From NCBI GenBank assembly GCA_000004985.1, contig GG738875.1: DNA of 64,000 nt; one strand, 5' to 3'. The DNA comes from Naegleria gruberi (taxonomy: Eukaryota). This document shows, piece by piece, positions 9,203 through 36,238 of the stretch (positions are counted from its first letter, which is position 1; every line of letters begins with the position of its first letter). The position numbers and the translations under genes were made by a program. The notes under the pieces were generated by a model that searched no databases, was not told the origin of the DNA, and saw only the letters and a list, made by a program, of their open reading frames with translations.

Positions 9203-9956
9203 ATGTCTTCACCAACCTTTACTTTGATTGATGAGAATCCACAAAAAACCATCGATGAAGTTCTCATTGAACAACAAAGCCACAGTGAAAGATTATTGGA
9301 CAAACCAATGGAAAAGGGATTTTCCTTTAAATTTGATTATGTTGCAACCATCGGAAAAACTGGACATGAAGGAAATGGACACGATGAATTTAATAGACCA
9401 GACGATGTGATCATTACAAGAGATAGATATTTAATTGTTGCAGATAAAGAAAATGAAAGATTGCAAGTTTTTATTGAAGATTATTCATTAATTTGGAAAT
9501 ATTTCACAACCATCAAAACTCCTCAAGTGAAACCATACTGTTTAGAATTGAAAGAAAGTGAAAGTGGAGAAGAAACTTTATGGGTCTTGGGTGATCATTC
9601 AAATCAACAAGTGTTGAAATTTTCAAACATTTCACAATTCATTTCTGATATTAACAATGGAAAGGAAACTAAACCAGAACAAGTTGATAAAAAAACTAGC
9701 GGATCATTTGTTAATTTCCAATTTTCAATCACAACAGATAAATTTAAAGGTTGGTCAATTCGTTCAGAACCATACGAACATGAATTGGAAGTTTATGGAG
9801 CTGATTTTGAGATGGTTTTTAAATATGCTAAGGATAAAGGAAGTGGTCCTGGAAATGATCAATTATATGTTCCATGTGGATCATGTATTGATTATAAACA
9901 TGGACACTTTTTGATTTGGTGATTCTGCCAATCACAGAATTCAAATATTCCAATAA
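9203..9956 (+). CDS. NHL-repeat protein; the reading frame is interrupted by an apparent 1-nt frameshift near 9914-9917
   Basis: ATG at 9203 (aaaaaaaATG). NHL-type motif GHEGNGHDEFNRPDDVIITRDRYLIVADKENERLQVF. The ORF stops at 9920-9922 (HFLIW*), but the +2 frame continues ...GDSANHRIQIFQ* to TAA at 9954-9956. That is a textbook NHL motif (V/I-x-DSANHRIQIF), so the terminal blade is split across two frames. Confidence 0.6.
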
Positions 9957-10572
9957 AACCAAAACCAGTATTGAGTCTAATTTCACACTGACAAGGTTAC
10001 AATTTCTTTCAATTCATAATTCTTTCAACAATATCCACTTCAAAGAACAACTTGGTCATCATCGTTCTCTATTGACACAGCCAATCTATCATTATCCATT
10101 CTATATTCCTTCTTTAATAATTTCTAAAGAAATAGTCAAGTGAAATTGAATTTTCCATTCACTGGTGCGTGTTTCTATTACCAATAAACTAGCGAAATAT
10201 ACAATTAACACCTTTACATATAATTTTCCATTCAATTTAAATTTGTCATCCTATTTACTACTATCATGATTTAGTTTAATAGGAAAGAATGTATTTGATT
10301 TTAAGGATTTGACTTCTATCCAAATACATCTATCAATACCATACTCCAACACAAATTCGCTATGGAGTGTTGGTTGGAGTTGAAAATATTGTCATGAAAT
10401 AATAACGGAGCTAGTTGAATAACCGACATTCGTTCAATAACAAGATTATCCAATAAAATAATAATAACAAATTCAATTATTTACATATGATGAAGATGTA
10501 TTGTCTCCATCTAAATAAACAATATGTTTATTATTAATGATACATTTCAATTTACAAGCAACTTTCGTCCAT

Positions 10573-10749
10573 TTAGAAAACGAAACCAAAGACAGCCAAG
10601 ATAGCAATCAACAAGATAGCAGCGAAACCTTGTTCAGGAGCACCAGCATAAACTTCAGATTCGTGATATTGAGCGTTAATTGGAGAGGCAAAGAAGAACA
10701 TGATGCAGGCCAAGAGCATCATCATGACAATAGTTTGAGTGGAAGACAT
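10573..10749 (-). CDS. Hypothetical 58-aa protein with a signal-peptide-like N-terminus and a C-terminal TM segment
   Basis: MSSTQTIVMMMLLACIMFFFASPINAQYHESEVYAGAPEQGFAAILLIAILAVFGFVF*. Codon use is strongly of the highly-expressed type (gct/ttc/atc/ggt/aac/caa). The overlapping plus-strand ORF has poor codon use. It is below the 60-aa ORF-track cutoff. Confidence 0.4.
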   Translation of the reverse strand: MSSTQTIVMMMLLACIMFFFASPINAQYHESEVYAGAPEQGFAAILLIAILAVFGFVF

Positions 10750-11401
10750 TTCGAATAGTTAGTTTTTTTTGTTGTTATTTGTTGAAGAGGATGAACAAGA
10801 GAGCAGTGATCCTTTAAATTCAAAAACTGAAACAACCGGTAATATGTACAATTGAGGTTTCGAACATCCTTCATACAATTTTTATAACTTACCTTCTATA
10901 TTAAGACCGGCAACGAAACAAGAGGTTTTTCAAATAAGGTTGAATAGAAGCATCAATGGATATGCACATCCATGTTGGTTTGTCGTGAATCTCTTGCACC
11001 GAAAACGCAGATTTTACTAGCTTTGACTTGGTTTTTTGTAATAGTTTACAATGAGGTGATTGTAAAGTTTACTATTTAATACATGCACTCATTAAAAGTT
11101 GTTCTACTTTCCATTAACGTTTGCTTTACAAAAATATCAACAAGTGCACTCTTTGAATTTGTACCATTTCGAATATTACTTTCCATTGTTCAAAGCGAAT
11201 AAAATTAATTATCTCTCTACTCTAGTCCGCTAAATATTCATTCTCCTAGCAAAAAATAAACACTCTATAATCATTTTGAATTAAACTATAATTTTTAATG
11301 ATGATACAATAATATTCTAAATTTCTTAAATATATAAAAAAGGGATACAAAAATGAATAAATCTATTCCATATTCATAATACACTGGTATGTAGTATACT
11401 A

Positions 11402-14400
11402 TTAATTTCTATTTGTAAATAATAAAACAACAGATAATGCAATAAGAATTAAAGTGACAATTGACTTGGCATCAAAAGATTTCAAACCAGCATCTGGAGT
11501 AGCACAATCAATCTTTTGAGTGTAACCAGTGAAACATTGACAAACACCTTCACTTGAACATAATCCATTACCATTACAATCATTTGGACATTTTCTACGT
11601 TCACAACTGACACCAGAGTAAGAATCATCACAAGTACAAATACCAATTGAAGTATCACAAGTACCATGACCATTACATTTTGGATCAACACAATTGTACA
11701 AATCACAATCAAATCCAGTGAATGAATCTTCACATGTACAGAAACCTGTAACTGGATCACAAGTACCCTTATAGTTACAATCTCCAGGACATGGTTTAGT
11801 ACCTGTAATGATTAATGAATGTTCTGTACCTAAAGCAACATCAATGGCAAGTTCTCCATTTGGAATTGGAACCTTAGTTGGAGTATAAACATTATTTTGA
11901 TGACCTAAACCCAATTGACCCTTATCATTCAAACCAAACATGTAAACTGCACCACTAGCTGTTAAGAAACCAGCATAATAACCATCAGGTTGAGAAATAA
12001 CAATCTTGACAGCAGTAATTGGAATACTTGGATTCAAAACTGGTGTAGTAATTCTAGAACCATTGAGATTTGGATCTAAACCCAATTGACCATAAGTATT
12101 ATCACCAACAACATAAACACCAACACTTGTTACAATAAATGTAGAGTCAGCACTTGTAATAATGTTAGTAATTGTTGTAATGTTTGTAAATGTACCAACA
12201 GAATTACTGTTAGAATTACTATTCACATTACCAATTTCACGGAAACTTGAACTAGCAGTCAAAGCACCGAAACCTAATTGACCATAAGTACTATCACCAG
12301 TACCATAAACTCTATTGAAATAAGTTCTTGTAGTACCAGAACCACCCTTTGATTCATATGAAACATAAGTTGAATGGAATGGACCAGCAGCAGCCATAAC
12401 GACAGTATTGGTTGACAAACGAATTGGAGCTTCCTTTTCAACGTTAGCAATTTGACCTCTACTGTTACCACCCATAACGAAAAGTGACATGGTAGTTGCT
12501 GTAGTTCTTCTAGCTTTCATAATTGTGTGAATGGCACCACATGAAACTGATTCAATGACAATGGTACCGTTTTCATATTGAATAGTACGTGGAATGAGTG
12601 TAACGTTTGAAGTTGATGTTCCAGTACCAAGACCCATTTGACCATTTGAGTTACTACCCATGGCAAGAACGAGAGTTGAAACATTGGTCATGAAAAAGAC
12701 AGTTGTTTGTACTTTTGATGAATAAGTACCATAACCAATTGAAATACCAGTAACATTGTAAGAATTCAATTCAGGAATAGCACGTGGAACTTGTTGATCA
12801 ATATAAATGTTTGGATTTAAGAAATTGTATGGAGATCTATTACTACCCCATGCCCAAGTCTTACCAGTCAAATATTCAGTAGCAAATGAAACACCATTAC
12901 TAGCATAAACATGATCAAATTGAACATTTGATGCAATGGTACTCAAAACAGTTGGAGAAGTATAGTAAACTTGATCACCAGTTGTGGAAATCTTACCCAT
13001 ACTATAAACACCATTATCAGTAGTTAATACGAAAGTATTCTTTGAGGAAACTGCTAAAATGTATGAGGCAGTTTTTCCACTTGGAACAGTTGTTGAACTC
13101 TTAACAGCTCCAGTAACTGAAGAAGACCATGGATTTAAACCCAATTGACCTTCAGAATTGTCACCACAAACATAAACATCACCAGAAGATGTCAATAAAA
13201 CAGAATGTTGATAAGCAGTGGTAATTTGAGTAATAGTTGTAGATAAAGAAGGTGAGAATAAAGCAGATGAAACTTGAACTGGATAATATGAGCTAGTAGT
13301 TGAAGTACAGAATGAAGCCATATCATTCTTACCCCAGAAATATACCTTGTTTTGATTAGTTGAAGCCAAAGCACCCAATTTGTAAACTGAAATATCTAAA
13401 ACAGTTTCACCATTCAATTGAACTTGAACTGGAGTAGCTTGTTGAGTGATAGAAGTACCATTAATACCCAAAACACCTTCATCATTTGAACCACCAGCAA
13501 AGAGTTTACCATCAGTTGTCAAAACAAACATGGAACGAGAATAACCAACAACTTTTTGAACTGTAGTATAATAGGAAGTACCTAAAAGTGTTGGAGCTTG
13601 AACAATATAATCAGTAATACCCATCTTTTGGAATGCATTATCACCCCATCCATATAATAAATTAGTACTAATTTGAATACCAAATGAAGAATATCCAAAT
13701 GCAAATACTTTGGCTAATTTGAGAGTTGGCACACTATCCATAATTGTGAGATTAGTTGGAGCAACCAAATAATCAAAACCTTTACCAAGTTGTTGATAAT
13801 TGTCTATTTAAATTCATGGATACATAAATAATAATTTTAACACAATAAATGTCAAGTTTTCAAATGCAATCAAATATTTGAAAATGATATGTTAACAAAT
13901 GATCATATAAAATAGATTACATACTATTACCAAAACCATAAAGATCCGAATTTCCATTATTCAAAAGATAGATAACATGTTCAGTACCACAGGCCAATGA
14001 TTTAATACCAACACTGTAGGAAGCAATCAATTGTGGAACTGTGAAACTAGAAGTAGTATTCAAACCTAAATTATTATTATTAGTATTATCATTCAAAAAT
14101 AATCATTATATTCATCACAATTATAATCACACAATTTTAAATAATCACAAATAATAATAATAATATACGTATGTGAGTGAGTGAATGTGATATTACACAA
14201 TTTGTTGCAAATTTTCATCAATTATTATTACATTCTAATAACAACAAACATACCTAATAAATAATTAACAGTTGATGAGAGTGTGTTTGTACTTGAACCC
14301 ATTCCATATAATTTACTTTCTCCTGTAGTTTCGGATACAACAAAGAAAACTCTAACATTTGAACCAGAATCATCTTGTTGAGCGCAAACAAAAGAAACAT

Positions 14401-14626
14401 TCTTTCCTTTGAAAGTATCAATAGCTTGTGGAATGTAGTAATTTTCTTGTCCTAATTGACCAGCAGCATTTGAACCAAATCCATAAACTTTACGTCCTGA
14501 AACTGTTGATGGAAGAGATGATAATCTTTTAGCACGCGGTTTAGTAAATGGATTGTAGGATTTACAATAGATGGAATTTGCAATAAGTATACTGCAAAGT
14601 AGTACAATTAATAGTTTAAATGACAA
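11402..14626 (-). CDS. Secreted/type-I membrane protein with an RCC1-like beta-propeller, tenascin-type EGF repeats and a C-terminal TM anchor; join(14254..14626,13925..14065,11402..13803)
   Basis: Exon 1 has a signal peptide (MSFKLLIVLLCSILIANSIYC). Repeated G-x-N-x-x-GQLG blades run through all exons (YGFGSNAAGQLGQ, GDNSEGQLGLNP, GSNSNGQMGLGTG, GDSTYGQLGFG, GDNTYGQLGLDP, GLNDKGQLGLGH). Cys-rich EGF repeats follow (CPGDCNYKGTCDPVTGFCTCEDSFTGFDC...), then the hydrophobic IVTLILIALSVVLLF. Donors GTATGT in both introns, which are 188 and 121 nt; phases are consistent. Confidence 0.65.
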
Positions 14627-15039
14627 GTTTCTAATGGTTTCGAATAAGTTTATAATGTTTAGTTTTGTGATAACATTAGAATAATACGTTACCTTGATGT
14701 CATTTTTTTCTTCTGTTGAAAATTTGACAAGTGACTTTGTTGATTGGTAACGGCTGCCTTCAAAAATGACATGACAGAACGAATAAATAGAAAGGAATGC
14801 GTCAAATGGATCTTGTTCAATTTTACTTGAGTTTTTTGTTCGTTCACAAATTTTCTTCTAATATCAAACTAGTAGTATGATTCGAACGAATCATTTGGCG
14901 CCATTTTTATTCATCAATGTTTACACTGTAAATTCCAAGCCTCGAGGCTTTCTTGTTAAAAATAGCGAACTTTTACAACAAATAAGTCCTCACTGTTAAA
15001 GTCTTGCGTTTTAATTTTCCAATTTTTAAAAGAAAAAAA

Positions 15040-18000
15040 ATGCCACCAAAGAAGAGGAATATTAATTATGATGATGACGACGATGCTGATGAAAACGATA
15101 ATGCAGGAAATGAGAGTTTAATTGTTCGGGAGCGATTAAATTTTGCTAACCGAAGCAGTAATGGATCATCTTCGGGTGGTGGTAGTGTAGGATCATCGAA
15201 TAGTACTAATCAGTGGTGTGCTTTTAATATTGGTGATAAATCGGAGAATGATATTGAACGTGTGATGATTGCCTACTTGGAAAAGTATCACTTGCAAGAT
15301 ATTAGAGATATTTTGTGTCCTCCTCTCACTCTAACAAATGATGATACAATTCACTATAGTGTATTTATTGATGTTTCACATTTCATGTCTGCAAATATTG
15401 AAATTGGATCAATTTTATTATCATACCCAACAGAATTAATTCCTATTTTTGAGAGAGCACTGATTAAAACACAGCAACGTCACATTGAAAAACAAGAAGT
15501 TATGAAGGAACAATTTAAATTGAAAACATTTGTGCATGTTAGACTTCATACGTTACCACAATGTTCCGAAGTAACAAAAACATCAGTGAGATCTGTGAGG
15601 AGTTGTGACGCTAATAGATTAATTTCTGTCAGTGGTACTGTCATTAAAACAGGGCCTATCAAAATGTTGGAGTATAAGAAGATTTATATTTGTAAAAAGT
15701 GTAAAAAGTCATTTGATATTGTTGCAGATAGAGAACAATTTAATAGTATAACGAAACCAACACAATGCCCAATTGAAGATTGTGGAGGAAAATCATTTAT
15801 TTCGAGAGAGGATGAAATTGTTTGTAGAGATTATCAGGAAATCAAAATTCAAGACAAAATTTCACAACTACATGTTGGTTCAATTCCTCGTTCCATTCTT
15901 GTAGTTTTGGAAGATGATTTAGTGGATGTTGTAAAAGCTGGAGATGATGTAATTTTAACAGGAATACCTTTCAGAAGATGGAAAACTTTTAAAAACGATG
16001 CTAGATGTGGTGTTGATATGGCTGTATGGAGTAATCACATTCGTATTGGAAATGAAAAGAAGAGTGCAATGAACGTTACAGAAGAATTGAAATCAGAATT
16101 TAAACACTTTTGGGAAAAGTATAAGGAGAATCCATTGGCAGGAAGAAGCTTAATTTTGAAGAGTATGTGCCCTCAATTATTTGGATTGTACTTTGTCAAG
16201 TTGGCAGTTGCGTTGACTATTATTGGAGGAGTACCAATGAAAAAGAATAATACACGTATTAGAGGAGAGTCACATTTATTGATTGTTGGTGATCCAGGTA
16301 CTGGAAAAAGTCAATTTTTGAAATATGCCTCTAAATTGAGTCCCAGATATGTAATGACAAATGGAATTGGTACAACTAGTGCCGGTCTGACAGTTATGGC
16401 TTCAAAAGAGTCTGGAGGAGATTGGGCCCTTGAAGCAGGTGCTCTTGTTTTGGCTGATGGAGGAGTTTGTTGCATTGATGAATTTGATGCTATCAGAGAA
16501 CATGACAGAGTAACCATTCACGAAGCTATGGAACAACAAACCCTCAGTATTGCAAAAGCTGGTTTAGTTTGTAAATTGAATACGAGAACAACTGTTTTGG
16601 CAGCATGTAATCCAAAGGGAAAGTATGATTTGGAAGCAAGTATTTCTGTAAATTGTGCACTTGCTAGTCCATTGTTGAGTCGTTTTGACATTGTACTTGT
16701 ACTTTTAGATTCCCAAGATGAAGAGTGGGACAATAGAGTTTCATCATTCATTCTCAATGAGCAACAAATGGAAGAGGAAGATTCTCAGTTATGGTCATTT
16801 GATAAGTTGAGAGCTTATATTTCCTATATCAAATCAGAATATCATCCACAAATACCGCCAGAAAGTGGTAGAATCTTAACAGAATACTATAGACTTCAAA
16901 GAAGAGCTGACAGAAGAGTTGCTGCAAGAACAACTATTCGTTTGCTTGAGTCTTTAGTTAGATTAGCCCAAGCTCATGCCAGACTCATGTGTAGAAAAGA
17001 GGTTACTGTCCAAGATGCTGTAATGTCTGTATTAACTGTTGATATTTCTTCCAATACTTCATCTTTACTGAATGTTTCATCTGTACTTCATTCTAATTTC
17101 CCAGACGATCCAGATAGTGATTATAAGGGTTATATTGAAATGGTTCTTTTCAAGTTAGGTATTGGTTTACAAGATCCTAGAACTGTTAATTTTTCAATGC
17201 CTCCTCAAAATCAAAGACAACAAATCACACAAAAGAAACCAACACAACAAGCCACTCAAAGAGAAGAAAGAGTGGATGAACCCTTAATAGACGATGATGA
17301 TGACCAAGTTGATTTTGGTTTTACTGATGATGAACCTCAACCTGAACAAGTTACCAGTCATGCTGTGAGAACTCCAACAAAACCTAATCAAGGATCATCC
17401 AAACGTAAAATTGAGCATCACCAGGAAGAGCCTGAAGAGGATTATCGATCTCCACAAAAAAAGAAGAAAAGTGTCTTCTCAACCCAAGATCTAGAAGAAG
17501 TAGAAAATGATATTCATAGAACACCTTCTCTTCCTTCAAATCGTAACCTAAACAATTTTAAAGAGCATTTGAGATCTAAGGGAAAGGATTTGGAAACATC
17601 AGAGCTCCCTCAACCTCCAAAACCTATTGAGCCACCAAGGTCTATTTTACAAAAACCTCAAGCTCCACCAATTGTTGAAAAAACCTCCTCTTCTGTCCAA
17701 TTTAACAAACCTTCACCACCTCCACAACAACAAAATGTACAGCAACCAAAAGATAATATCCCTAGTATAAATCCACCCCCTTCAAAACCACCTTCCAGAC
17801 AAACTCCTCAAGATATTATTCCTCCAGTAACCAATAATCAACAACAGCCTACAAAACCAGCCCAACAAGCAACTCCACAAACAGGAAGAGGTAGAAGTTT
17901 ATTATCTAATCTTGGTTCACGAACTAATCAAGTAGCTCAACAACCTCCACCCCAACAATTTCAACAACCTCCACGACCAGCTCAACCAGCTACAGATCAA

Positions 18001-20203: not shown

Positions 20204-20266
20204 TTTTTTTTCTGGTTTTTTACAAGAGAATTAAATTATGAATGTTTGAGAAGTTATGGAGATAGT

Positions 20267-21521: not shown

Positions 21522-22619
21522 CTATACTTTGAAATGAGTCCATGGAATGGAATTGCTCTTATTGATTTCAGAGTCATTTTCTGGCATGAATAATGGATCT
21601 GTATCTCTGTAATAGTAATGAATATTTCCTTGATTATCCATTAGAATGATTGTTTGGGATCTGGTTTTAAAGTAGGTCTTATTTACATAAATGTTGTAAT
21701 GTGAGTCAAGTCGTGATCTGAAATGAAGAGGACCAGCACCGTCTTTCATAAAGTGTTGTGGAATCAGATTCAACAGGGATGGGTCTTTGCTATGATCCAG
21801 TTGTTCAATGTTTGTAAGGTGATTGATAATTTGTTCTTCCTCCTTGAAATGTTCTCTGAATCTATTAGTAATACATTTTTCTAATTTTTGGAGCATTACA
21901 TCTGGATCTGTGATTTCTCTATTTTCTTTCACAGTTTTTTCAAGTAAATTCTTGAGAAGATCAAGTTTGTATTTCTTATAAAGTTCATTCCTACAATCAT
22001 CCAAATATGTATTTGAAACAATGTGAATCTCATTATTGATCTCCTCAATTTTGTAATAGTTTAGGAGATTTTGAGCTTGATCATCTCTATTGGTCATGTA
22101 AAACATTGGATTTACGCCATCCAGATTTCCCATAATAATGTTAAATCCTCGCATGTGTTTTTCTTCTCCAAAATATTGATCGAGAACATTTTTCCTTAAT
22201 TCTTCAATTTCAATTGAGGATTTCAATTTTTTTGGAAATAAACAAATTCCATTCACAATAAATCCTCTAGAAATCAAATGATCTGTATCTGCAGTTGGAC
22301 CAAATACATTTGTCAACACAACCATATTCTTTGTATCTAAATTGAGACTATTTACAATTAAATTTGGAAAATAAATGAAAACAAACCCCATCCATGTTCC
22401 TCCCTCTTTCTTATCAATACATGAGAGAATTCTAAATCCTGTTTGAGAATCTACTCTGATATCAATTTCACCTGTAGATCTAAGTGGATCTTCATCTCTA
22501 AAATTTTCAATCAAAAAAAAATTAATTTTTTAAAAATCCAAAAATAACTCATACCTATTGTCAACCAAAATGAAAGGGAAGTAAGGGTGAAATGATTGAA
22601 TACACCCTACAATACACAT
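21522..22619 (-). CDS. TANGO2 (NRDE-family) protein; join(22555..22619,21522..22497)
   Basis: Exon 1 encodes MCIVGCIQSFHPYFPFILVDN and ends at AG|GTATGA. A 57-nt intron and a TTTTAG acceptor restore N-R-DEDPLRS, the NRDE motif. Downstream are EGGTWMGF, RGFNIIMGNLDG and KTRSQTIILMDNQGNIHYY, matching conserved TANGO2 blocks (EGGTWLG, NGFNL, TRT.TIIL). Confidence 0.75.
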
Positions 22620-22636
22620 TTTTTTTATTTTTAATT

Positions 22637-22993
22637 TTATTCCAATTGTTTCTTCTTGAGTAATGCATCAATTTGTTGATTTGCTTGAGCCAATTCTCCA
22701 TACCATTCATGATGGTGCATATCAGCATATTGCTTATCTCCTCTAAGTGGACTAGAATTGGAGAGTGGGAACAATACGTCACTAGTAATTTTATTAATTT
22801 GATGTTCGGCACTCTTGAAGGTTGATCTATTAAAATCAACACAAGAATTAATTGGTACACATTCAATAGCATACATTCCGATGATGATGAAGATTACAGT
22901 TATATTAATAACAATAAATATATAATGAACATGAATCAAAAAAACATACCCAAACACTGATTTGACTACTCCTCTCGCCAAAGCACACAACAT
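22637..22993 (-). CDS. Hypothetical 77-aa protein; join(22950..22993,22637..22826)
   Basis: ATG at 22993 (tagaaaaATG). Exon 1 encodes MLCALARGVVKSVF and ends at GG|GTATGT. A 123-nt intron and a TTTAATAG acceptor join it to GSTFKSAEHQINKITSDVLFPLSNSSPLRGDKQYADMHHHEWYGELAQANQQIDALLKKKQLE*. The N-terminus looks like an amphipathic presequence. No homologue recognised. The long ORF-track protein (185 aa from a non-ATG start) is mostly intron read-through. Confidence 0.4.
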   Translation of the reverse strand: MLCALARGVVKSVFGYVFLIHVHYIFIVINITVIFIIIGMYAIECVPINSCVDFNRSTFKSAEHQINKITSDVLFPLSNSSPLRGDKQYADMHHHEWYGELAQANQQIDALLKKKQLE

Positions 22994-23094
22994 TTTTCTA
23001 AAATTGATTTCTTCTATTTGTTGTGTAGCGTTAATTTGATGGCACGTGAAGAAAAACAACAAGAAGCAAATTAAAAGGCGCAAAGTGAAAAAAA

Positions 23095-26000
23095 ATGATA
23101 TCGACACCACAAAAACGTTCCTCTCGAAGAAACATCTCTTCGGGGCCAACATCACTTTCTGGTGGATCGTCATCTCACGCAACAAATAGATCAAGCCATC
23201 AAAAGTTACTTCAATTTATTGAACACATTAAATTCGAGACTAACAAGGATAAATTAAATCACTACCTACAACAAATTGATGATATTTTGATCAGCACAAC
23301 AGAAAGGTATGTTAATAGTAAAATTTGCTGGAAATTGGAAATTATTGTGTAGTGATAATGACTTGGTAAACGAATATTTGCCTAAAATTCTTCAGATTCA
23401 ACATCCTGTGCACCCTCAAGATTTTAAACTTTTCCTTTCTCTCTTGATTGAAAAAGTTATGAACAAGGTTCAAAATGTTTCTGTTGAAAATACAAAGAGT
23501 TGTGCTGAAACATTGTCTTTAATTCTGATTTCTACTGATAGTACAAACTTGATGAAGCGTATTATTACAACAAGTATTTCAATTGTTAGGAAATCTATTG
23601 AATTAATTACTCTGGATCCAAACAACAAGCATAATAGTATTTTATTCAGTCACATGTCACTTTTGATTAAGAGAATTTTGAGTTATATTGATAAGGATAA
23701 TGAAGGTATTCAAACTCATGCTGTACATTTTATTGAAAATTTAATTTTAATGTACAGTAGTATTAATAAGTCAAATATGGAAATCAATGAAGAAAACCTT
23801 TCGAACCTCTTATCTTACCTTCAACTTTCTGGTAACACCTACAAGGTTCAATATATAGATCCTTACCCAATTGACTTGAGCTTTGTTTCAAGTTATGCAG
23901 AGAATGGTAAAGTTGGATGTTTCAATGTTGAAAATATGAGAGATGAAGGAGCAAGATATTTGGAAAAATTGATTGAAAAATTTAAAAAGGAGGATTGTCC
24001 ATCATCTGTAATTTCAGTCATCATCCAAGCTTTACTGAATATTGCAAAACAAAGACATGGATTTTGGAACACAATTATTCCTTTCCTTTCTAATCAGGCT
24101 TACTATTATTTGGGAAAAGGTAGAACTAACAACACACAAAAACAAACTTTGAAGACTTTATTGAAAACAGCTATTTTGTTTTTATTGAAAATGCCAGAAA
24201 CTAGACACAAATGGAGACCAACTATTCTTCATGGATTGGGTGAGCTTGATGTAAGCAATACTTCGATCGGAATGATTACTAAATTTGTGGATAAACATAC
24301 TACAGTTTTAAAAAGAAAGGAACCACCTGCAGAGGAAAAAGAAGCCAAGGTTAGGAAGAATGATATCTCTCAAGCTTCTCAAAATCAAACTGGAGCTCAA
24401 CCTACTCAAGATTTGGAGCCTACATCAGTTTTATATATCAGCTATGTTCCAAATGCTATGACTAACGTTGAGCTGGCAAATACAGTTCTTGGAAATCTTT
24501 CTCGAATTGAATCAAAATCTAATAGACCACCTAAGAATCTTGAGAATAGTAATCAATTGGTTGGTGTCGTTATGTCTGCCCTCTCTAGTCACTATAAGAA
24601 AGGTAATACATATTCTTCAGAAGAACAGCAACAATATATGAGTTCCGTACAATTATACTTATCAGAACCTATTCCATCATTCAACTCTAGTCTTGTCACA
24701 GTATCTGTACTCCAACAACAAGCAAATCCTTATCAAGCTAGACAAGTTGCTACAACACCTTACGGAAGAAGTCCATATAGCAGAGCTGCTCCAGTCCAAT
24801 CACAAAAAGCTGACCCAAGACTTACCCAAAAAGATCCAAGAACAGCATATGTTCCTGATAAGAGTAATGCTTTCAGTTCTAATCAATCTAAAGCCTCTGG
24901 AGATGATTCTGATGAGGAAGAGGTTGTCACATACAAACAACAAACAACTGTCAAACAAGAAAAGGTTGCTGAGCCAGTTGAAGAAGATGTTAAGGAGGAT
25001 TTATCAAAACAATTCAAACTTAAATTATCTATTGTTGATGATAACTGCAAACAACAACTCAAAAAATTCAATTGGAACAAGATGTTAATGAATGAAAAGG
25101 GGATGAAAAGAGAAGGAAAAGATCACTATAGAATTAAGCTCATTTGTCTTATGGCTGTAAGAAGTGCCGAAACAGACGAGCAATATCAACAACTCTACAA
25201 TTTCATTAAAGAGGATGTTAAGGGCCGATTCTCACTACTCATGATGTGGTTGTATATGGAGTATAAACACTCCATTGAACAAGAATATAATGTCAAAAAA
25301 GAAGAAAGTTCCGAAAATAGATATACAAGACTTTTCCACAAGTTTTTACTCAGTTTCGATAAGAGTGAAAGTATTCTTGCCAGATTTTTGGTTCAATCTC
25401 CACACATTACGCAATATACATTGGATTATATTTGTAAAGATCTTTGTGAAAGCGATAATTACATAGGACATGGACTAACAGCTCTAAGAGATATAGTTAT
25501 TTACAGACAAAATTTAAGAGAAAGGTGTTTGAATATGTTACTAAATTATGGTATTCACCAAAACTCTAAGATTCGTACACCTGCAATCCAGATTTTGCGT
25601 GATAAAACTCTGTATACTTTATTTGAGAAAGAAATTACCGACTTTGCATATTCAAGTATTATGGACATGAAACCTCTAATTGAGCAATCAACTTCAACTG
25701 ACGAAATGGTAGATGAACAAGAATCAAGCACTGATGCTAATAATGAAATTATTAAGAGGTACAGCTCCCTTTATTTGGCTCTTAGCTCGTCGTATTGTGA
25801 AGCAACATTTGAGAAACTCCTTAATGATGTTTATGCTAACTACAAGAGTTCAGAAAATATGGAGCCAGTTGTAGCAGTCTTGGAGAAAGACATTTTAAGT
25901 ACTGTGAAATCGAGCTTGAACAGAGCAACTGTGATACAGTATTTGAAAAATTTCAAGGAGGCCGAGTGTCTCGATATTAGTATTAAGATTATGCAACAAT

Positions 26001-26782: not shown

Positions 26783-26801
26783 ATAATAATTTATGTTTTT
26801 T

Positions 26802-27445
26802 TTACTGATTTGAAGATGACATTTTGGTGTAAATATGTTTCATAACTGTAGAAATAAAGTGTTTTTGTCTATATATACAATCTTTTAAGCAATCTGCTTC
26901 CTTAGGTGCTAAATGTTCTGTGGTTTTTTCCATAGTTTTAAATCTATCGTATTCATCCAATGGATTCAGATAATACTGACTAACACATCTCTCATAACAT
27001 AACCCTGTCAAATAAGCTTGTTCCAAATATTTATCCTTTTCAATATTAGCCTTATGTTTCAAGTCATCCATGTGTTGATTGAAAAATAATTGTTGTTGCA
27101 TCATGAATTGCTCTGGATTCATATACATAAAATTAGGATCATAATAATTGTTATAAGACATTCCGAAATTATTAAAATTATTATTCATTGAATCTTGAGG
27201 AAAATTAAAACCAGACATATCCGTTGTTGTCCAAAATTATCGTTTGTCATCATATTATTTTGCACATCTTGTTGTTGGAATGAATTATTAATATTATTAT
27301 TATTATTATTGCTGGTAGTAGGACTTGTTGTGAAAGGTAAGAATGGTGATTCCGCATAAAACTTTCCTACAAATCCTTTAGTTGTCGGAGAAATAGCTGG
27401 TGGATTTTGATTGAGAATGTTTGTGTCGACGTTTACTTCGTCCAT
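26802..27445 (-). CDS. Small N/Q-rich protein with twin Cx3C motifs (small-Tim-like?); the frame is broken by an apparent 1-nt indel near 27215-27240
   Basis: ATG at 27445 (aaaaaaATGgac). The upstream frame reads MDEVNVDTNILNQNPPAISPTTKGFVGKFYAESPFLPF...NDNFGQQ and runs into a stop at 27185. The downstream frame, shifted by one nucleotide, reads ...SGFNFPQDSMNNNFNNF...GLCYERCVSQYYLNP...EADCLKDCIYRQ.... Both frames have the same composition and overlap over 34 nt. Two C-x3-C motifs are spaced 31 residues apart. Confidence 0.45.
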
Positions 27446-27555
27446 TTTTTTATTGTTGTTTTCAATCAAATTGTGTATTAATTTAATAAATAATAATTTA
27501 TTATCTTTTCTAAATCAGAATATTGTTAAATAAATAATTTTGTTGATTCTTTTAT

Positions 27556-28782
27556 TTACAGTTCAAATTTCTTCAAAACAGTTGACTGAGAAATTGCATT
27601 ATATGACATTTGAGCTCCCTTAAATTGAACAGTGACAGAAGCAATGAAATTAGCCAACTTGATGGATTCTTCCACTGGAATATCACAAGAAACGAAATAA
27701 GCAAAACTTCCAACCCAAGCATCACCTGCACCAGTTGAATCCATTACATCTACAATTTCACCCTCCACATACTTATAGATTGTTTCTCCATTTTCAGTGT
27801 ACAAAGCAGCGCAACCTCTCTTGCCTAAAGTTATTATGACATTTGAGACTGATAATTTTTCTTTGATTTCTCTACATAAGCTTTCAACTGAGCTTTGATC
27901 CTCAACATAGGAGTCAGCCAATTCCTTTCCAATAATTAAAGGTGCTTCTGTTTCATTTGGAATAATATAATCCACATATTTTGGAAGATCAGCAAGTTCA
28001 GGAGGTAAAGTTAAGAGATTGACAGCAGGAGCTGGATTAAAAATGGTAATCAATCCTTCTTCCTTTCCTCTCTTAAGAGCATGATATGTAGCATTGAGAG
28101 GTGTTTCATTTTGACATACAAGTACTTTACATTGTTTGATATCATCCCATGAGTCATCAACCATTTGTGGAGTAAGATGTTCGTTTGATCCTCCTACAAG
28201 AACAATTGAATTATTTCCTGTTGCTTTTTCAACAAAAATCAAAGCTTGTCCACTCACAGAATCAACAATTCTTACATTTTTGTCCACATTATATAAATTA
28301 TTAGTTCTAAAGTTTTCTTTGCCTTGTTGGCCAAAAGCATCATTACCAACAACAGTAACAAAAACTACTTTAGCCTCCTTGCTCGATAATTTAGAAATAC
28401 AGACTGCTTGATTAGCTCCTTTTCCACCAAATTGTTGGTCAAAACTATCAGCAAAAAGTGTTTCACCGACTTTAGGAATTCTTTTTACTCCCTATTAGTT
28501 TTATCATGATCAAAATTAATTTTGTTTATACATCAATATTATCAATAAATATTATTATCAATAATGACATTGTTGTTGTAGTAGTAAATATCTTTCCATC
28601 ATCACGGATTTGTAAATACTTACATAAGTAAGATCAACGTTGGAACTACCAACAATAGCGACACCTGAATATATATTTTAAATATTATTCTGTATAGTCT
28701 CATCAAACATACCTTGTTCTTGTGTAAACCCATCAAAGGCAGACTCACCAATATTGGCACCAGAAGGAGAGGAAGCGATCAT
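27556..28782 (-). CDS. Ribokinase (PfkB family); join(28713..28782,28624..28664,27556..28491)
   Basis: Exon 1 encodes MIASSPSGANIGESAFDGFTQEQ plus G, ending at a GTATGT donor; a 46-nt intron follows. Exon 2 encodes GVAIVGSSNVDLTY, ending at GTAAGT; a 132-nt intron follows. Exon 3 begins GVKRIPKVGETLFADSFDQQFGGKGANQAV...VLVCQNETPLNATYHALKRGKEEGLITIFNPAPA... and ends with GAGDAWVGSFAYF. These match the ribokinase N-terminal, substrate and anion-hole motifs. Confidence 0.8.
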
Positions 28783-29134
28783 TTTTTTTAGAGTTGGAGC
28801 TTTTTTAAAACCCGATTAGACTTGCTCGGCCACGGTGACTATTGAATTTGAAACTTGATTATTTCAGTGTTATTGTTGTTGTATGATGACGATAAAGGAG
28901 GAGAGTAATCTTTAAACTCTTCAAAATTCATTTCGTACTTTATAATGTTGAAGTGCTATTATTATTCAAAAGGTGTCAAGCCAAGTGTGTACAAGAACAA
29001 AATGGAGCAGTTACATTCTAGTAATTTCATAGAGCCCATTATTGTACATTGATTTGGCGCCAATAAAGTTCAAACTGTAGACTGGACAAAGTGAGGCGGT
29101 TTGAGGTTTTTTTAAAAAAACATAGCGCCAAAAA

Positions 29135-30886
29135 ATGTCTGAAGAAGAACATAACGAATCAGGTGAAGGTTTTGAATCATTCAACTATGAAGAAGATGAA
29201 GAACATGAAGAAGAAGAACAACAATCTTCACCAAAACAAGCAACATCACCTTCTCAAAAATCATCAGCCCCTTCATCACCAGCAAATAGACAGCCATCAT
29301 CTCCATCTATGAGACCAACATCAACAAGGAGTACTAAAATGCTTGCTCAATTCTCTTCAAGGCCTAGTACAAATACACACTTTATGGAAAAGTTTGAACA
29401 TGAAAAATCCGACTATTCTAACGACAATGTCCCTGTTGATGATAGAGTTAGAATTCTTGTAAATACAGATAAAAACAACGAAGTTGAAGGTGAAACAAAT
29501 AATGCGGATGAATCATTTGAATCATTTGGTGACGAATTTGAAAATAAGGAAGAAGAAATTGAACCTACAGAGGAATATAAGAATGATCTCGGTATTAAAC
29601 CGTCTGACTCCCATGAAGTTCAAGAATTGAAAAAAGCTCTCAATTCAGATAAACAATTAATTGCTAAGCTTAAAAAGAATAACCAAGGTCTGAAGGAGCA
29701 ACTTGTACAACTCAATCAAATAGTGGAGGAACAACTTGAACAAAACGGAGTTAAAATTCAAAAGCCAAAACCAACAGTCAAAACAGTTCTTGTAGGAAAT
29801 GATCAAGAGCTTAAACTTTTAAGAAAACAACATGAAATTGATAAGAAAACAATTGAAAAATTACAAAAGCAACTCTTTAGTGAAGGAAATCCAGAAAGAA
29901 TCAAACTTTTAGTTAATAAGATGAGTGAATTAACTAAACAACTAGAAGATCTTGAAAAGGAAAATAAGAGCTTGAAGATTATCCAAAGAGAGCAAAGCAA
30001 AGCTCTGGAAACATCTGCTGGTGTTCAAGACAAGACAATTGATGTTATGAAGAACGAATCAAGGTTCCAAAGCGGTAAAATTGAACAGCTGAAAGACAAG
30101 ATTAAAGAGCTCGAAGAAGTAGTTAACCAAAAGAATAAGATGCTAGGTGTTCATGAGCAAAAAGCAAAGAATTTAGAAACAATTTTGAAGAGAAAGAACT
30201 TGACAGAAGATGGTGTCACAAAAATTGATGAATTGACAAAGCAAATTGAAGAATTATCTAAAGAAAATGACAAATTGAAAAAGGATACTATTGTTATGAA
30301 CAAATCGAAAGAAGTGTTGGAAAAGAAAGCAAAAATGATTAGTTACCAATCCAAACAAGAAGTTAAGAAATTTTCTCAAGAAAATACAGAACTAAGGATG
30401 ATGTTAGAAAAGAGAGAGAAGGATATAAGAGCTTCGAACATGATTCTCAAACAAAACAACCTTACTCAACACATGATAACCATTAGTCCTTTATCTACTC
30501 CAAATAGTTCTTCAGACCTTTTTGCAACCAACCAAACATCTACAAATCAACCAACAAGTGGTGGTGGCTCTTCTGGTAGTCAAAGAAAGGTAACAGCAAG
30601 TCCAAGTCCAACAGCTCCAAAGACAAAGACTGTAACTAAAACAACAAATGCTGCTGTCACTGAACACAAGAAAATAGCCAAGAAGAATAATATTCAAACT
30701 TTGGGAGAAAAGAAGAAGAGTATAACAAGCACAGCTCAAGAAATTCTGAATACTGTTGAAGAAGCAGTAGATGATGAATTTTTCGGTGATGATTTTGCAG
30801 GAGACGACTTTGATGACAGCGAAGAACCACCAAAGCAATCATCTAACAATAACGAAGAATCATCAATATTTGCTCCAAGTTTTTAA
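29135..30886 (+). CDS. Hypothetical coiled-coil protein with acidic N- and C-termini (583 aa), single exon
   Basis: ATG at 29135. A long heptad-rich central region (KALNSDKQLIAKLKKNNQGLKEQLVQLNQIVEEQLEQ..., LEDLEKENKSLKIIQ...) between acidic, Ser/Pro-rich ends. No specific family recognised. Confidence 0.55.
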   Translation: MSEEEHNESGEGFESFNYEEDEEHEEEEQQSSPKQATSPSQKSSAPSSPANRQPSSPSMRPTSTRSTKMLAQFSSRPSTNTHFMEKFEHEKSDYSNDNVPVDDRVRILVNTDKNNEVEGETNNADESFESFGDEFENKEEEIEPTEEYKNDLGIKPSDSHEVQELKKALNSDKQLIAKLKKNNQGLKEQLVQLNQIVEEQLEQNGVKIQKPKPTVKTVLVGNDQELKLLRKQHEIDKKTIEKLQKQLFSEGNPERIKLLVNKMSELTKQLEDLEKENKSLKIIQREQSKALETSAGVQDKTIDVMKNESRFQSGKIEQLKDKIKELEEVVNQKNKMLGVHEQKAKNLETILKRKNLTEDGVTKIDELTKQIEELSKENDKLKKDTIVMNKSKEVLEKKAKMISYQSKQEVKKFSQENTELRMMLEKREKDIRASNMILKQNNLTQHMITISPLSTPNSSSDLFATNQTSTNQPTSGGGSSGSQRKVTASPSPTAPKTKTVTKTTNAAVTEHKKIAKKNNIQTLGEKKKSITSTAQEILNTVEEAVDDEFFGDDFAGDDFDDSEEPPKQSSNNNEESSIFAPSF

Positions 30887-30909
30887 ATAAAAATTGGTTT
30901 TGTAATTAT

Positions 30910-31358
30910 CTAAAAACCCAGTTTATTCGGTTTAATTAAAGCTGATTCACAGTTCTTGGGAGATCTTTATAATTGTTATTAATTACATAATCATCAAACA
31001 TTACTACATACCTTCCATAGGAGTTTCACTTTCACCTTCAACTCTTTCGAAAACGGCATCCTTGAAAGCGTTAATCTTTCTCATTTCTACCTTTCTGATC
31101 TTTGGGTCCTTGATAACTCTTCTCAAGAAGTATGAGTTCAATTGGATATACTTCAAGAAAGACAATCCGTTACGATAAGCCTAATTAAATTAAAAAAACA
31201 TCCGAATAATAATAATTAATATTGATGATGAATTTAAAAAATAATTATTCAACAGCGAGTATTGTTCATGATGACAAATTTTGTAGTGATGAAGACAAGA
31301 TACGGAAAATGTTTTAGAGGCCTGCAGGAGAGAAAAAATGACTTACTTGTTCAGACAT
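30910..31358 (-). CDS. Mitochondrial F1-ATP synthase epsilon subunit (ATP5E/ATP15-like), 70 aa; join(31347..31358,31012..31180,30910..30941)
   Basis: Exon 1 is only 12 nt (ATG TCT GAA CAA) before a GTAAGT donor, then a 166-nt intron. Exon 2 encodes AYRNGLSFLKYIQLNSYFLRRVIKDPKIRKVEMRKINAFKDAVFERVEGESETPME, to be compared with human ATP5E [34 protein letters not shown] donor and a 70-nt intron lead to a short exon 3, ALIKPNKLGF*. Codon use is strongly of the highly-expressed type. Confidence 0.55.
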
Positions 31359-31718
31359 CGTTTGATATTTTTTTTAGAGAGGGAGATGTTTACAATAACT
31401 TTAATACTGGCGACCATTGCTGGTCATTTTTACTATTCCACTCAAAATTGAGTTTAATTGAGTTTTTAATATTTAAAACCTTAGTTTCTTCCTCATTCAC
31501 ATATTCTCTTTGATTTATTCTTCTTAGACAATCAAAAGAACTTGGAAAAAACGCATGGTCTTCACTTTCGCTTTGAAGTGAATGTTTGTTGTAAAACAAA
31601 AAAGCGCAGGAGCATTTTGTCCCTTTTTAGATCGCAATAAACACCAGAAAAAATTAGAGTCATCTATGGACTCTTGTTAACTTGTAAAATTATCTAACTA
31701 CTTGATATTAAAATCGGA

Positions 31719-34169
31719 ATGCCAAAGAAGAAAAGAGTACAATCTAAAAATTCTCCATCGTCGTCTGATGATAGTTCTGGAGATTCTGATGAAGAAAGAC
31801 CAACTATTAAAAATAAGGCTAAAAGGAAGAAGGTGGCCTCTTTTGTTGACTTTACTACAACTGATGAGTTTTTGAATGGACTAAGTGATGCTGTTTATTT
31901 TAGCAGATTACCATATGAAAAACTAAGTGTGGAAGAAATTAAAGATTTAGACATTTCATACGCCTTAGAATGTAATGAAGAATATTTAGCTGTCAGAAAT
32001 ACCATATTATTTATGTGGAGGAAAAATATTACAGAATGGATTGATTGCGATAAATTACTTGAAATTATACCAAGGCTAAAATTCTTCAAAAATATCAAAT
32101 CAGACTCTGCTCAATTTGCAAAGATAATTATTAACACTTATCAATTTCTCAATAGACATGGATATATTAATTATGGATTTTTATCAAAATCAAAATATCC
32201 AAATGGTATTACTACTAACCTAAAAATCAACCATTATAAAATGTTGGATAAATTACCAGTGAATAATCAAAAAGATAGAAAGCATATAGTGGTAATAGGA
32301 GCTGGATTTTCAGGAATTTTTGCAGCTAAACAATTAATTTCATTTGGATACAGAGTTACATTAATAGAGGCTAGAAACAGACCAGGTGGGAGAGTGTTAA
32401 CAGATTTTTCATGGACAGATGATTCTCCAGTTGATATCGGAGCATCAATTGTTACATGTAGTGCCGCTTCTCCTGTAGTTGGTGTAGCAGAACAAACTCA
32501 AATCAAATTGAAAAATATTGGTAAAGAAGATCAACTTTTTCAATCTAATGGACAAATACTACCTAAAGATTTGGATGATAAATATCAAAGAGCATTTAAT
32601 GATATTTTGGATAAAGTATGTTCCCTTAAACAACCAGGCTTTGAAAATGAAAGAGAGGAATATAGAAGAGATGTTCATAAGGGATTTATTGACAGCCATC
32701 CAAAGGATATGACAGATGAATCACGAATTGGCAAAACAGACATGTCACTCGGATACGCAATGGATAAAATGACTGAAAAAATTGTAAATGAAGCACCTGA
32801 AAGTGAAAGAAAAACTATGCAGGAGGTTCTTCAATGGCATACAGCCAACTTGGATTATGGAGTTGGTCACGATATAGAATCTGCTTCATTATATTTTTGG
32901 GATCAGGATGATATTTATGAACTTGGTGGAGAACATTTGTTTGTCAAGAAAGGATTTTCCTCAATGATAGATGCACTTTGCAATGATGCTCAGGAATTGG
33001 ACAAATATATAGAATATAACCAAATGGTAGTTGGTGTTGATTACTCAAATCCAGATATTGTAAGAGTCAAGACCAAGAAAACTCCAGAAACCACAGGAAT
33101 TCATAGGAACCCAATTGGAAAATCAAAGCAGCTAAAAGAAGGCAAACTGGATACTAATGCTGATGATTTTGAATATGACTGTGATGCTGTACTTACGACT
33201 GTTCCTTTAGGAGTTCTTCAGGGTAAAAGTCCACTAAATATTTGCACCTTTAATCCACCACTTCCTGAATGGAAAACTAACTCGATTAACAAATTAGGAT
33301 TTGGCCTTTTGAATAAGATCATCTTGGAATTCGATTATGTTTTTTGGCAACAAGATCACTTTTATTTTGGACTAACGCATGAAGATCCATCAGAAAGAGG
33401 TTTTTGCTATTTATTCTGGAATTTATATCCTTTAACCAAAAAGCCTATACTTTGTGGTTTGGTAACTGGAAAGGCTGCTTATGCAATAGAGGAAAATGAG
33501 AGTAATTTGGAATATATCAAGTCAAAAGTTATGAAATATTTGAGAAAATCCTTCTCATGGAGTACAAACTTACCCGATCCAAAGAAAATTATGAGAACCA
33601 ACTGGTATCATGATCCTTTCAGTACTGGTTCCTATAGCTACGTTAGAATGGGAGCTAAGGGAGAAGAATACGACTTGTTGGCTGAAACTATTGATAATAG
33701 AGTTTATTTTGGAGGAGAGCACACTTGTAGAAAATTCCCAGCAACTGTTATGGGAGCTGTAATTAGTGGACTGAGAGAGGCCGCCAAGATTGACAAATAT
33801 TTTAATGGACTATTGTTTAAAAAACAGAATAAGACCCAAGACCAAGACCAACAGGAGAGTGTTACATCTAGTCTAAAGCCAAAGGGTGATATCTTAATAC
33901 CTTCAAACCCTACTGAAATGTCACAAATAATGAAACCTGTTCCTGCAAATCAGAGAGGATGGAGAAGACATTTGAATGCGTCAATTTTAAAGGACCCAGC
34001 CCAATTCCCTTTTCCAGTTCAAAACGTTGGCTTCAAACCTCCACTTCCTGGTTTTTTTCAATTTCCACTAATTTCTATGGGTTTTAATCCACAAAACCAA
34101 ACTAAGAAACCTCTAAACCTACAACAAAATATCAATGGCCAGCAAACCCCTCAAAAACCAACAGAATAG
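31719..34169 (+). CDS. Lysine-specific histone demethylase 1-like (SWIRM + FAD amine oxidase), single exon
   Basis: ATG at 31719. SWIRM-like block ...NTYQFLNRHGYINYGF (LSD1 LERHGLINFGIY). FAD-binding motif HIVVIGAGFSGIFAAKQL...IEARNRPGGRV. C-terminal amine-oxidase signature YFGGEHTCRKFPATVMGAVISGLREA. Confidence 0.8.
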   Translation: MPKKKRVQSKNSPSSSDDSSGDSDEERPTIKNKAKRKKVASFVDFTTTDEFLNGLSDAVYFSRLPYEKLSVEEIKDLDISYALECNEEYLAVRNTILFMWRKNITEWIDCDKLLEIIPRLKFFKNIKSDSAQFAKIIINTYQFLNRHGYINYGFLSKSKYPNGITTNLKINHYKMLDKLPVNNQKDRKHIVVIGAGFSGIFAAKQLISFGYRVTLIEARNRPGGRVLTDFSWTDDSPVDIGASIVTCSAASPVVGVAEQTQIKLKNIGKEDQLFQSNGQILPKDLDDKYQRAFNDILDKVCSLKQPGFENEREEYRRDVHKGFIDSHPKDMTDESRIGKTDMSLGYAMDKMTEKIVNEAPESERKTMQEVLQWHTANLDYGVGHDIESASLYFWDQDDIYELGGEHLFVKKGFSSMIDALCNDAQELDKYIEYNQMVVGVDYSNPDIVRVKTKKTPETTGIHRNPIGKSKQLKEGKLDTNADDFEYDCDAVLTTVPLGVLQGKSPLNICTFNPPLPEWKTNSINKLGFGLLNKIILEFDYVFWQQDHFYFGLTHEDPSERGFCYLFWNLYPLTKKPILCGLVTGKAAYAIEENESNLEYIKSKVMKYLRKSFSWSTNLPDPKKIMRTNWYHDPFSTGSYSYVRMGAKGEEYDLLAETIDNRVYFGGEHTCRKFPATVMGAVISGLREAAKIDKYFNGLLFKKQNKTQDQDQQESVTSSLKPKGDILIPSNPTEMSQIMKPVPANQRGWRRHLNASILKDPAQFPFPVQNVGFKPPLPGFFQFPLISMGFNPQNQTKKPLNLQQNINGQQTPQKPTE

Positions 34170-34216
34170 AAGGACACTAATTTTAGAATTCAATGACGTA
34201 ACAAATAATTTAAAAA

Positions 34217-36192
34217 ATGGCAGATATTGTTCTTCCAGATACTCACTATGATGCCATCATTGTCGGAACTGGTATCGAAGAGAGTTTAATTGCTGCATCG
34301 TTGAGTAGAGCTGGAAAACGAGTACTTCACTTGGATTTAAACGATAGTTATGGTGGTCATTTTAGTACAGTGAATCCATCTGAATTAAACGAATATGTTC
34401 ATGTAAAATCTTTTGATTCTGATGTTCCGGAACCTTTTTATCAAAATCCATTCTCTCAAATTAATTTTAAAATTATTGATGATTTAAATATTTCTCTTCA
34501 AAGAAAGACAATGATTGACTTGTGTGGATTGCATGTTTTATATTGTAGAGGACCTATGGTAGAATTATTAATTCAATCTGGTATTGCTAGATATTTAGAA
34601 TTTAGATGTTTGGATTCTGTTTTAATGTTTGACAAGGAGCATTCCACTAACCCATTTAAAAATGTTGTAAAATCTGAAGATGAATTTTCACTTGTGGATG
34701 TTTCTCAATTGTTTCAAGCAGTTCCAACAACAAAGGGTGAAGTTTTTAAAACCAAGTTTATTTCTCTCAAGGAAAAGAATAGACTTGTAAAGTTTATTAA
34801 CTTTTGTGTCAATCTATCCACTCAGGAAGAAGAAATGAAAACCTATAAGGAATTTGAAAATGAATCATTTGATTTATTTTTGAGCAAGACACAACTGTTG
34901 GGAGACGAACAAAGCTTTGAAAAATTGAGAGATATTGTTGTTCATGCTTTGGCTTTATTAGATTCTCCAATTGGAATAACCACTAAACAAGTTATGAGTA
35001 GAGTACAATATTTCATTTCAAGTTTAGGTAGATTTGGAAATGGAGGAGCTTTCCTTTATCCATTATATGGACAAAGTGAGCTTGTACAAGCATTTTGTAG
35101 AGTTGGTGCCGTTTATGGTGGTGTATATGTTTTGAGAAGAGGAATTCATAGTGTAAAACTTGTTGAAAATGCTCACTATCAAGCTGAGCCTGTAAATATC
35201 GATCAAAATGAAGAGAAAAACTCAGACCCAACAGATGAAACTACCGATAGACCAGTAATTTATTCTAAAGAAAAGGTTGTGATTGAAGTTGGAAGTGGAG
35301 TTCAAACATTTACTTGTGATCATTTGGTAATGAACAGAGATTCTTGTCCAAGTGATACCAGTAGCACAGATGACGATTTACTTTTGAAGTTTGTTGTAGT
35401 TACTGAATCTCCATTGTTCAATTCAATTGCCAACACTATTGCAGTTATTCCTAGTGGTACAATTTCAATTGTTGCCTCTGATGAAACAATCGTAAAACAA
35501 CCATGTGCTATTTATTTGAATCAATTAGATTACTCAAGTTGTGTCGTTCCTAGAGGAAAGTACATGATCTCCCTTCAAACAAGAATTCCTTCAGACATTA
35601 GAAAATCCAATTCAGAGGTAGAAAGTCTTGTAATCAAAATGTTACAAACATGTGTAGACAGATTTATCAAGAACATTGAAAATGAGGAAAATATTGTATT
35701 CTCAACTTTATATAAGCAATCAATTCGTAAGGGAAGTTTTTCATTCTCTCAAGAATTGGACAGTAAGATTCATTTCTGCAATGATGCTAATCATGATGTC
35801 ATGCAATTAGAAAGTGGAATGACAGAACATGTTAAGGCTATCTTTAAGGCTATTGCAGGTGAAGATGTTGAATTCCTCGCAAAGATTCCTGATCCAAACA
35901 AGAGCGATAGAGACGAAGAAGATGAGCTCTACGATGAAACCACTAAATTGTTGGGAATTGAAAAGTCCAAAGTTGTGCAACCTCCCAACACAACAGCACA
36001 ACAATGGAGGAGCAAAATTTGGGAGGCGATAACCAACAACAAGATGAAATCAAAGATAACAATAACCCAGCAACACCTGCTGCTGATCATGAAAATGTTG
36101 CTGTTTCTGCTTCTGATGAAAATAATAATATTGAGCAAGAACAACCTCAACAACAAGACGACTCTGAAGGTACCAAAACAACAGAAAAATAA
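34217..36192 (+). CDS. Rab escort protein (Rab GGTase component A; GDI/REP family), with an apparent 1-nt frameshift near 35995-36006 before the acidic C-terminal tail
   Basis: ATG at 34217, 47 bp after the previous stop. N-terminal FAD/GDI fold motif MADIVLPDTHYDAIIVGTGIEESLIAASLSRAGKRVLHLDLNDSYGG; the length fits REP rather than GDI. Frame A is protein-like up to ...VVQPPNTTAQQ. The acidic tail MEEQNLGGDNQQQDEIKDNNNPATPAADHEN...DDSEGTKTTEK* lies in the +2 frame (ORF 36004..36192). Frame A beyond that point reads LLLIMKMLLFLLLMKIIIL, which is typical out-of-frame acidic repeat. Confidence 0.65.
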
Positions 36193-36238
36193 AGGAGTTT
36201 TTTCCCGCCAATTTGCCATCCAATTACGATACAAAAAA

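Follow-up and report, generated by a model that had tools for sequence, protein, structure and literature searches.

Three genes in a 64,000-nt stretch of Naegleria gruberi DNA (hereafter the window, with positions counted from its first letter), coding for an NHL-repeat protein, a Tim10-like twin-Cx3C protein and the Rab escort protein (REP), are each interrupted by a break in the reading frame. The explanation we favour, although with limited confidence, is that each of the three breaks is a consensus error of one base in the draft N. gruberi reference. According to this explanation, one spurious G would have been introduced at 9918/9919, one base would have been dropped between 27222 and 27223, and another one near 36000, while the true genes would be intact and would encode a 250-aa NHL-repeat protein, a 214-aa Tim10-like twin-Cx3C protein and a REP of ~658 aa with an acidic tail. 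At the first two sites the break amounts to exactly one base and a near-identical genome carries the intact state, and the frames found downstream of the breaks still resemble undamaged coding sequence. The coordinates of the genes, of the breaks and of the sequences used for comparison are collected in Table 1.

In regard to the comparison at the first two sites, it is based on contigs of a public short-read metagenome run (ERR1078381 / ERZ929261, project PRJEB11402), reached via exact-product look-ups and referred to here as the sister strain. Look-ups of this kind gave no matches for the three open reading frames as deposited, and it was a cluster look-up that brought up the sister-strain proteins. 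The sister strain is of the same species as the window, its sequence is not identical to it, and its contigs, which were independently assembled, are 96-99.9% identical to the window (divergence 0.08-4%). In the ~12.5 kb compared, every indel between the window and the sister strain, apart from those at sites 1 and 2, is located in intergenic or intron DNA, and indels in non-coding DNA amount to ~40% of the substitution count. Because the remaining indels are all non-coding, the two coding indels are exceptional, and the intact frame is clearly the functional state at sites 1 and 2.

Table 1. Genes, frame breaks and aligned sister-strain contigs in the 64,000-nt window.
Feature	Window positions	Strand	Aligned length	Description
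NHL-repeat protein gene NAEGRDRAFT_49910	9203..9956	+		250 aa in the sister-strain reading
Site 1	9918..9919	+		GG in the window, single G in the sister strain; one extra base; frame 0 to frame +1
Twin-Cx3C gene	26802..27445	-		Naegleria-specific protein, 214 aa once corrected
Site 2	27222..27223	-		one base missing between these positions (A on the coding strand, T on the + strand)
REP gene	34217..36192	+		conserved body in frame 0 to ~36000; acidic tail in frame 2, TAA at 36190-36192
Site 3	35965..36030	+		interval with one probable missing base, frame 0 to frame 2; best estimate 35998-36005 (between caacaa and tggagg)
Armadillo-repeat gene	36239..38509	+		exon 1 36239-36625, intron 36626-36670, exon 2 to 38509; ARM and ARMC5 matches
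Sister contig L001	36339-39536		3198 bp	11 substitutions, 0 gaps
Sister contig L003	8544-10428		1690 bp in main alignment	43 substitutions, 16 gaps
Sister contig L005	22243-28547		6317 bp	24 substitutions, 7 gaps
Sister contig L006	1462-2675		1214 bp	1 substitution, 0 gaps

At site 1, the deposited NHL open reading frame (ORF; 9203-9922) halts after 239 aa with ...GHFLIW, followed by the stop at 9920-9922, and this product is 100% identical over its whole length, truncated end included, to XP_002675843.1 / EFC43099.1, deposited as 'predicted protein [Naegleria gruberi]'. Where the window reads GATTTGGTGATT, L003 reads GATTT-GTGATT, and the G at 9918 is an extra base of the window in comparison with both L003 and L004, a second assembly of the same run. 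The corresponding ORF of the sister strain (P0003), which is the second member of the 90%-identity cluster of XP_002675843.1, is intact, comprises 250 aa and ends in ...HFLICDSANHRIQIFQ before its stop; dropping one base from the window changes its own product to ...GHFLI(G/C)DSANHRIQIFQ, again closed by a stop. The Pfam NHL repeat match (E 9.6e-10) is continuous over the site 1 junction and needs the next frame, with the repeat (PF01436) scoring 38.4 bits in the corrected window protein and 40.3 bits in P0003 (cut-off 20). Site 1 is the sole indel within the coding sequence of this gene, compared to 15 in the non-coding flanks of L003, and the break costs the protein only its last 11 residues. 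A search among 5.8 billion proteins returned a single relative, a weak match of 29% identity to a bacterial-type NHL protein, and the protein is lineage-restricted and not housekeeping.

The gene at site 2 is truly split in the window, being divided into two overlapping ORFs in different frames, one of 86 aa (27185-27445, with the ATG at 27445, MDEVNV...) and one of 138 aa (26802-27218), the latter holding CYERC...CLKDC intact (27218-26802). The codon usage of the window changes frame at ~27225-27265, in the same place as site 2. In the sister contig L005, which reads caacaacAggaaatg opposite caacaac-ggatatg of the window, the gene is a single intact ORF of 214 aa (P0004). In the corrected protein, the N-terminal motif KGFVGKFYxESPFL, which the upstream ORF of the window encodes, is followed by an N/Q-rich linker and, at the C-terminus, by a Tim10-like twin Cx3C domain, so that the correction rejoins the domain to the conserved motif. 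An exhaustive HMMER search of 1.84 billion representatives gave only three relatives of the Cx3C domain, all Naegleria-type, namely P0004, a 254-aa protein (P0125) and N. lovaniensis XP_044547658.1, named 'Tim10-like domain-containing protein' in UniRef, and each of them carries the invariant KGFVGKFYxESPFL and the Cx3C domain in one polypeptide. A protein search did not return an N. gruberi model for this protein, while the N. lovaniensis model exists. The assignment to the Tim10/DDP family is weak: Pfam zf-Tim10_DDP (PF02953) gives 10-16 bits, below the cut-off of 22.3, and the twin Cx3C is present, yet 31 residues lie between the motifs instead of the usual short spacer of that family.

At site 3, the ORF 34217-36643 (808 aa) shows a Pfam GDI match (PF00996, E 1e-39, 136.7 bits vs a cut-off of 23) and aligns end to end with the REPs of N. 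fowleri type (P0006/P0127), Willaertia magna and Acrasis kona, with all conserved blocks through ...DETTKLLGI intact in frame 0. The codon-usage score crosses from frame 0 to frame 2 at ~35990-36005, about 12 codons past DETTKLLGI; the last upstream stop in frame 2 is at ~35962-35964, and from the crossing onwards frame 2 remains coding-like until its TAA. Frame 2 reads MEEQNLGGDNQQQDEIKDNNN...TEK before the stop, an acidic low-complexity tail (MEEQNLGG...TEK), and REP orthologues likewise carry acidic tails of 30-70 residues after ...DETTKLLGI. Frame 0, read past site 3, gives WRSKIWEAITNNKMKSKITI... and meets its next stop only at 36643, because the downstream armadillo gene shares its frame. 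A base missing near 35998-36005 is thus well supported. An independent copy of the REP site was not found by protein search, exact look-ups, a 26-mer JGI metagenome scan or a peptide-pattern scan, and the sister contig L001 reaches only to 36339, which leaves 336 bp between it and the site. The protein search did not return an N. gruberi REP model either, while N. fowleri models exist. As regards the neighbouring gene, only 46 bp separate the REP stop from the ATG of the armadillo gene, and the deposited sequence mimics a REP-armadillo fusion ORF (34217-38509), broken only by the stop within the 45-nt intron.

An initial annotation of the window, made from the sequence alone, had pointed to frame breaks at ~9915, ~27225 and ~36003, and all three are present. 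The single-nucleotide correction which it called for is exact at sites 1 and 2, where the sister strain shows which base is missing or surplus, and at site 3 it is supported by the codon-usage switch. That these corrections restore conserved motifs holds for the NHL repeat match and for the link to KGFVGKFYxESPFL, but not for REP, which regains a non-conserved acidic tail and a stop. Likewise, the description of the genes as conserved and housekeeping-type fits REP, but neither the NHL protein with its one weak relative nor the Cx3C protein with relatives of Naegleria type only. To speak of three inactivating frameshifts in housekeeping genes was therefore an overstatement, since only the last 5-9% of the protein is affected by two of the breaks, and lineage restriction applies to two of the genes. 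The comparison which it proposed, with the same loci in an independent strain or assembly, yields intact frames at sites 1 and 2 and no copy for the REP site.

Several observations speak for consensus errors. The window agrees with the N. gruberi model at NCBI, truncated end included, and at sites 1 and 2 it is one base off an independent short-read assembly with intact ORFs. Codon-usage scans revealed no further stops or indels after the breaks, with the codon usage of the window kept, and the 138-aa and 62-aa ORFs downstream of the breaks are undamaged. The mixture of breaks (+1, -1, -1), without a common motif, resembles random consensus errors. Furthermore, REP corresponds to MRS6 in yeast, where it is essential, and the break in this gene, if real and homozygous, would leave an essential gene of single-copy type without its stop and fused in frame up to 36643, a state that is hard to tolerate. 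Indel errors of draft shotgun assemblies are generally of this kind, with isolated +/-1 breaks in otherwise sound ORFs, a coding-like frame downstream, a near-identical independent assembly in which the frame is intact, and gene models that are truncated or missing.

Other observations weigh against consensus errors, and most of them would fit an explanation that we hold to be possible but doubtful, in which the breaks are real frameshift alleles of the lineage of NEG-M, the sequenced reference strain, either fixed or making up the majority haplotype in a clonal laboratory strain that is heterozygous or polyploid. In that case the NHL protein would lack its last 11 residues, the Tim10-like protein would be split, although an ATG two codons past site 2 could still start the Cx3C domain, and REP would have an aberrant tail. 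We infer, rather than observe, that the extra and missing bases are absent from the real DNA of NEG-M. The intact copies derive from a different strain or haplotype (11/3198, 24/6317 and 43/1690 bp differ), hence they are silent on NEG-M, and for the NHL and Tim10-like sites a real mutation in NEG-M is an equally good fit; the reading as assembly indels, already given in the initial annotation, is still the likeliest, but for the same reason it is not proven. Besides, the metagenome sample holds more than one haplotype, at least two in the region of L003 and L004, where the two assemblies differ at 4/1086 positions. Unlike in typical draft shotgun errors, no homopolymer and no adjacent assembly gap is involved at any of the sites. 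The initial annotation had placed two of them at T-homopolymers and drawn its rationale for errors from this; however, the changed bases are one G of the pair at 9918/9919 and, between 27222 and 27223, a lone T flanked by C and G on the + strand, with no changed base in a homopolymer run, and the window is free of any N, with none of the three sites adjoining a scaffold gap. Three nucleotides from site 2, at 27219, there is a conservative D/E substitution (GAT, as opposed to GAA in the sister strain), which looks like natural polymorphism. Tolerated real variants gather at the 3' ends of genes, while random errors spread evenly, and two of the three breaks lie at extreme 3' ends, with two of the genes being lineage-restricted and probably dispensable. 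Finally, the N. gruberi reference has the lowest fraction of fragmented BUSCOs among the compared Naegleria assemblies, 1.3% (PMC9928731), from which it follows that three breaks among ~38 genes exceed the average of the reference.

Strain-specific loss-of-function polymorphisms, as generally known from yeast populations, present a similar picture in several respects, as they involve one-base indels in comparison with a conspecific, show a bias to 3' ends and to lineage-restricted genes, and occur here next to non-coding flanks rich in indel polymorphism. Unlike in such variants, one of the genes affected here is a core trafficking factor that would lose its stop, and no decay can be seen past the breaks, where neither further stops or indels nor a loss of codon usage point to relaxed constraint. 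The non-synonymous to synonymous codon differences (5:4 for NHL and 5:1 for Tim10-like, compared to 2:1, 0:2, 4:4 and 0:2 for neighbouring genes) are too small in number to indicate a raised non-synonymous rate. Three independent disabling mutations that hit a single lineage in a span of 27 kb would also exceed the usual 1-3% of genes per strain. That all three frameshifts are real in NEG-M, giving three genes with disabling or tail-altering alleles within 27 kb, is unlikely. Were this nevertheless the case, a REP without a stop would be read in frame into the neighbouring gene in a long-cultured clonal amoeba, which would mean that the alleles are masked by heterozygosity in a polyploid genome or that the amoeba tolerates a REP-armadillo fusion. 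A literature search gave nothing specific on PRJEB11402, on frameshift problems in the N. gruberi reference or on N. gruberi REP.

Two further explanations were considered and rejected. Programmed ribosomal frameshifting or insertional RNA editing, in which the genome would be correct and recoding would yield the full proteins, is very improbable. Programmed shifts are exemplified by the +1 shifts at stop codons in Euplotes, by antizyme and by viral X XXY YYZ sites, and like them the full-length products here need a frame change of one nucleotide. A TGA in frame 0 directly after site 1 superficially resembles +1 shifts at stop codons, and the heptamer AAATTTG occurs near site 3 (36015-36021), but it is phased with frame 2 and not with the incoming frame 0; there is no slippery heptamer at site 2 and no known +1 motif at site 1, the shifts needed differ in direction, and the three sites share no motif. 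The conservation check was equally negative. In contrast to true programmed sites, neither site nor shift recurs in the sister strain or other Naegleria species, as the sister-strain DNA reads uninterrupted in a single frame through sites 1 and 2 and the orthologues of N. lovaniensis, N. fowleri type, Willaertia and Acrasis are all single-frame. Since the sister strain encodes intact frames in its DNA, neither editing nor recoding is needed. Equally improbable is that short spliceosomal introns were misread as frameshifts. The window does hold introns of 45, 46, ~60 and ~130 nt, but the sister ORFs run through sites 1 and 2 with one base different, the NHL match is unbroken at site 1, and site 3 has no GTAWGT-type donor, its GT..AG pairs giving only 22-38 nt, below all introns of the window. 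A macronuclear or unedited copy, as had been suggested initially, a ciliate and an alternative genetic code can all be dismissed, because the organism is a heterolobosean amoeba, not a ciliate, and therefore has no macronuclear copy, its long ORFs are read normally using the standard stop codons, and the frames are already intact in the sister-strain DNA.

The window itself is nuclear DNA of N. gruberi, with a G+C content of ~33% and both strands densely covered with ORFs. Its introns are short, as represented by the 45-nt intron in the armadillo gene (GTAAGT...TAATAG), one of 46 nt at ~62531, and those of ~60 and ~130 nt near 22500-22950. These introns start with GTAAGT, GTATGT or GTATGA and terminate in YAG. 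Three other pairs of overlapping or abutting ORFs were checked in the window, and canonical introns or separate genes account for them. In a - strand gene at 22637-23194 and its neighbour, two introns are of unequal length in the window and the sister strain (differences at 22939-22940 and 22521-22527), namely GTATGT...TAATAG and GTATGA...TTTTAG. In the window, the GTATGT...TAATAG intron is a multiple of 3 and contains no stop, so its flanking exons resemble a single continuous ORF.

The divergence between the window and the sister strain ranges ~30-fold by contig, with 0.08% in L006, 0.34% in L001, 0.38% in L005 and ~2.5% accompanied by many indels in L003. Together with the disagreement between L003 and L004, such unevenness suggests that haplotypes recombine or that the sample is mixed or heterozygous. 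Upstream of the NHL gene, a window segment of ~95 bp (8675-8768) is absent from L003 and is bounded by a short direct repeat, TTGAA(T/A)AGT / GTGAAAAGT. It is an insertion/deletion polymorphism whose ends show microhomology. Close to it, the sister strain has a 72-aa ORF with a hydrophobic C-terminus (P0128; window 8798-9015, + strand; L003:156-374), which is disrupted in the window by two indels, an extra G at 8806 and A5 instead of the A6 of the sister strain at 8918. Codon usage across 8798-9015 weakly tracks shifted frames, no family match or further cluster members were found for the 72-aa ORF, and the surrounding stretch contains six indels in 230 bp. A fourth frameshift at 8918 was set aside, given the lack of a family match, the second indel at 8806 and the indel-rich DNA, and this ORF is probably non-coding and not a fourth broken gene.

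Regarding the meaning of these breaks, the observation is real yet ordinary, and neither consensus errors nor real NEG-M alleles, the two explanations that survive, bring new biology. If the breaks are real, they would be an ordinary case of strain-specific loss-of-function variation. The useful outcome of our study is corrected structures for three N. gruberi genes. The deposited NHL model, XP_002675843.1, is truncated, with 239 instead of 250 aa, while the missing N. gruberi models for the Tim10-like protein and REP look like annotation gaps resulting from the frame breaks. Studies of gene presence and absence that are based on predicted proteomes, such as the one reporting '599 genes absent in N. 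gruberi' (PMC9928731), may count such genes as absent.

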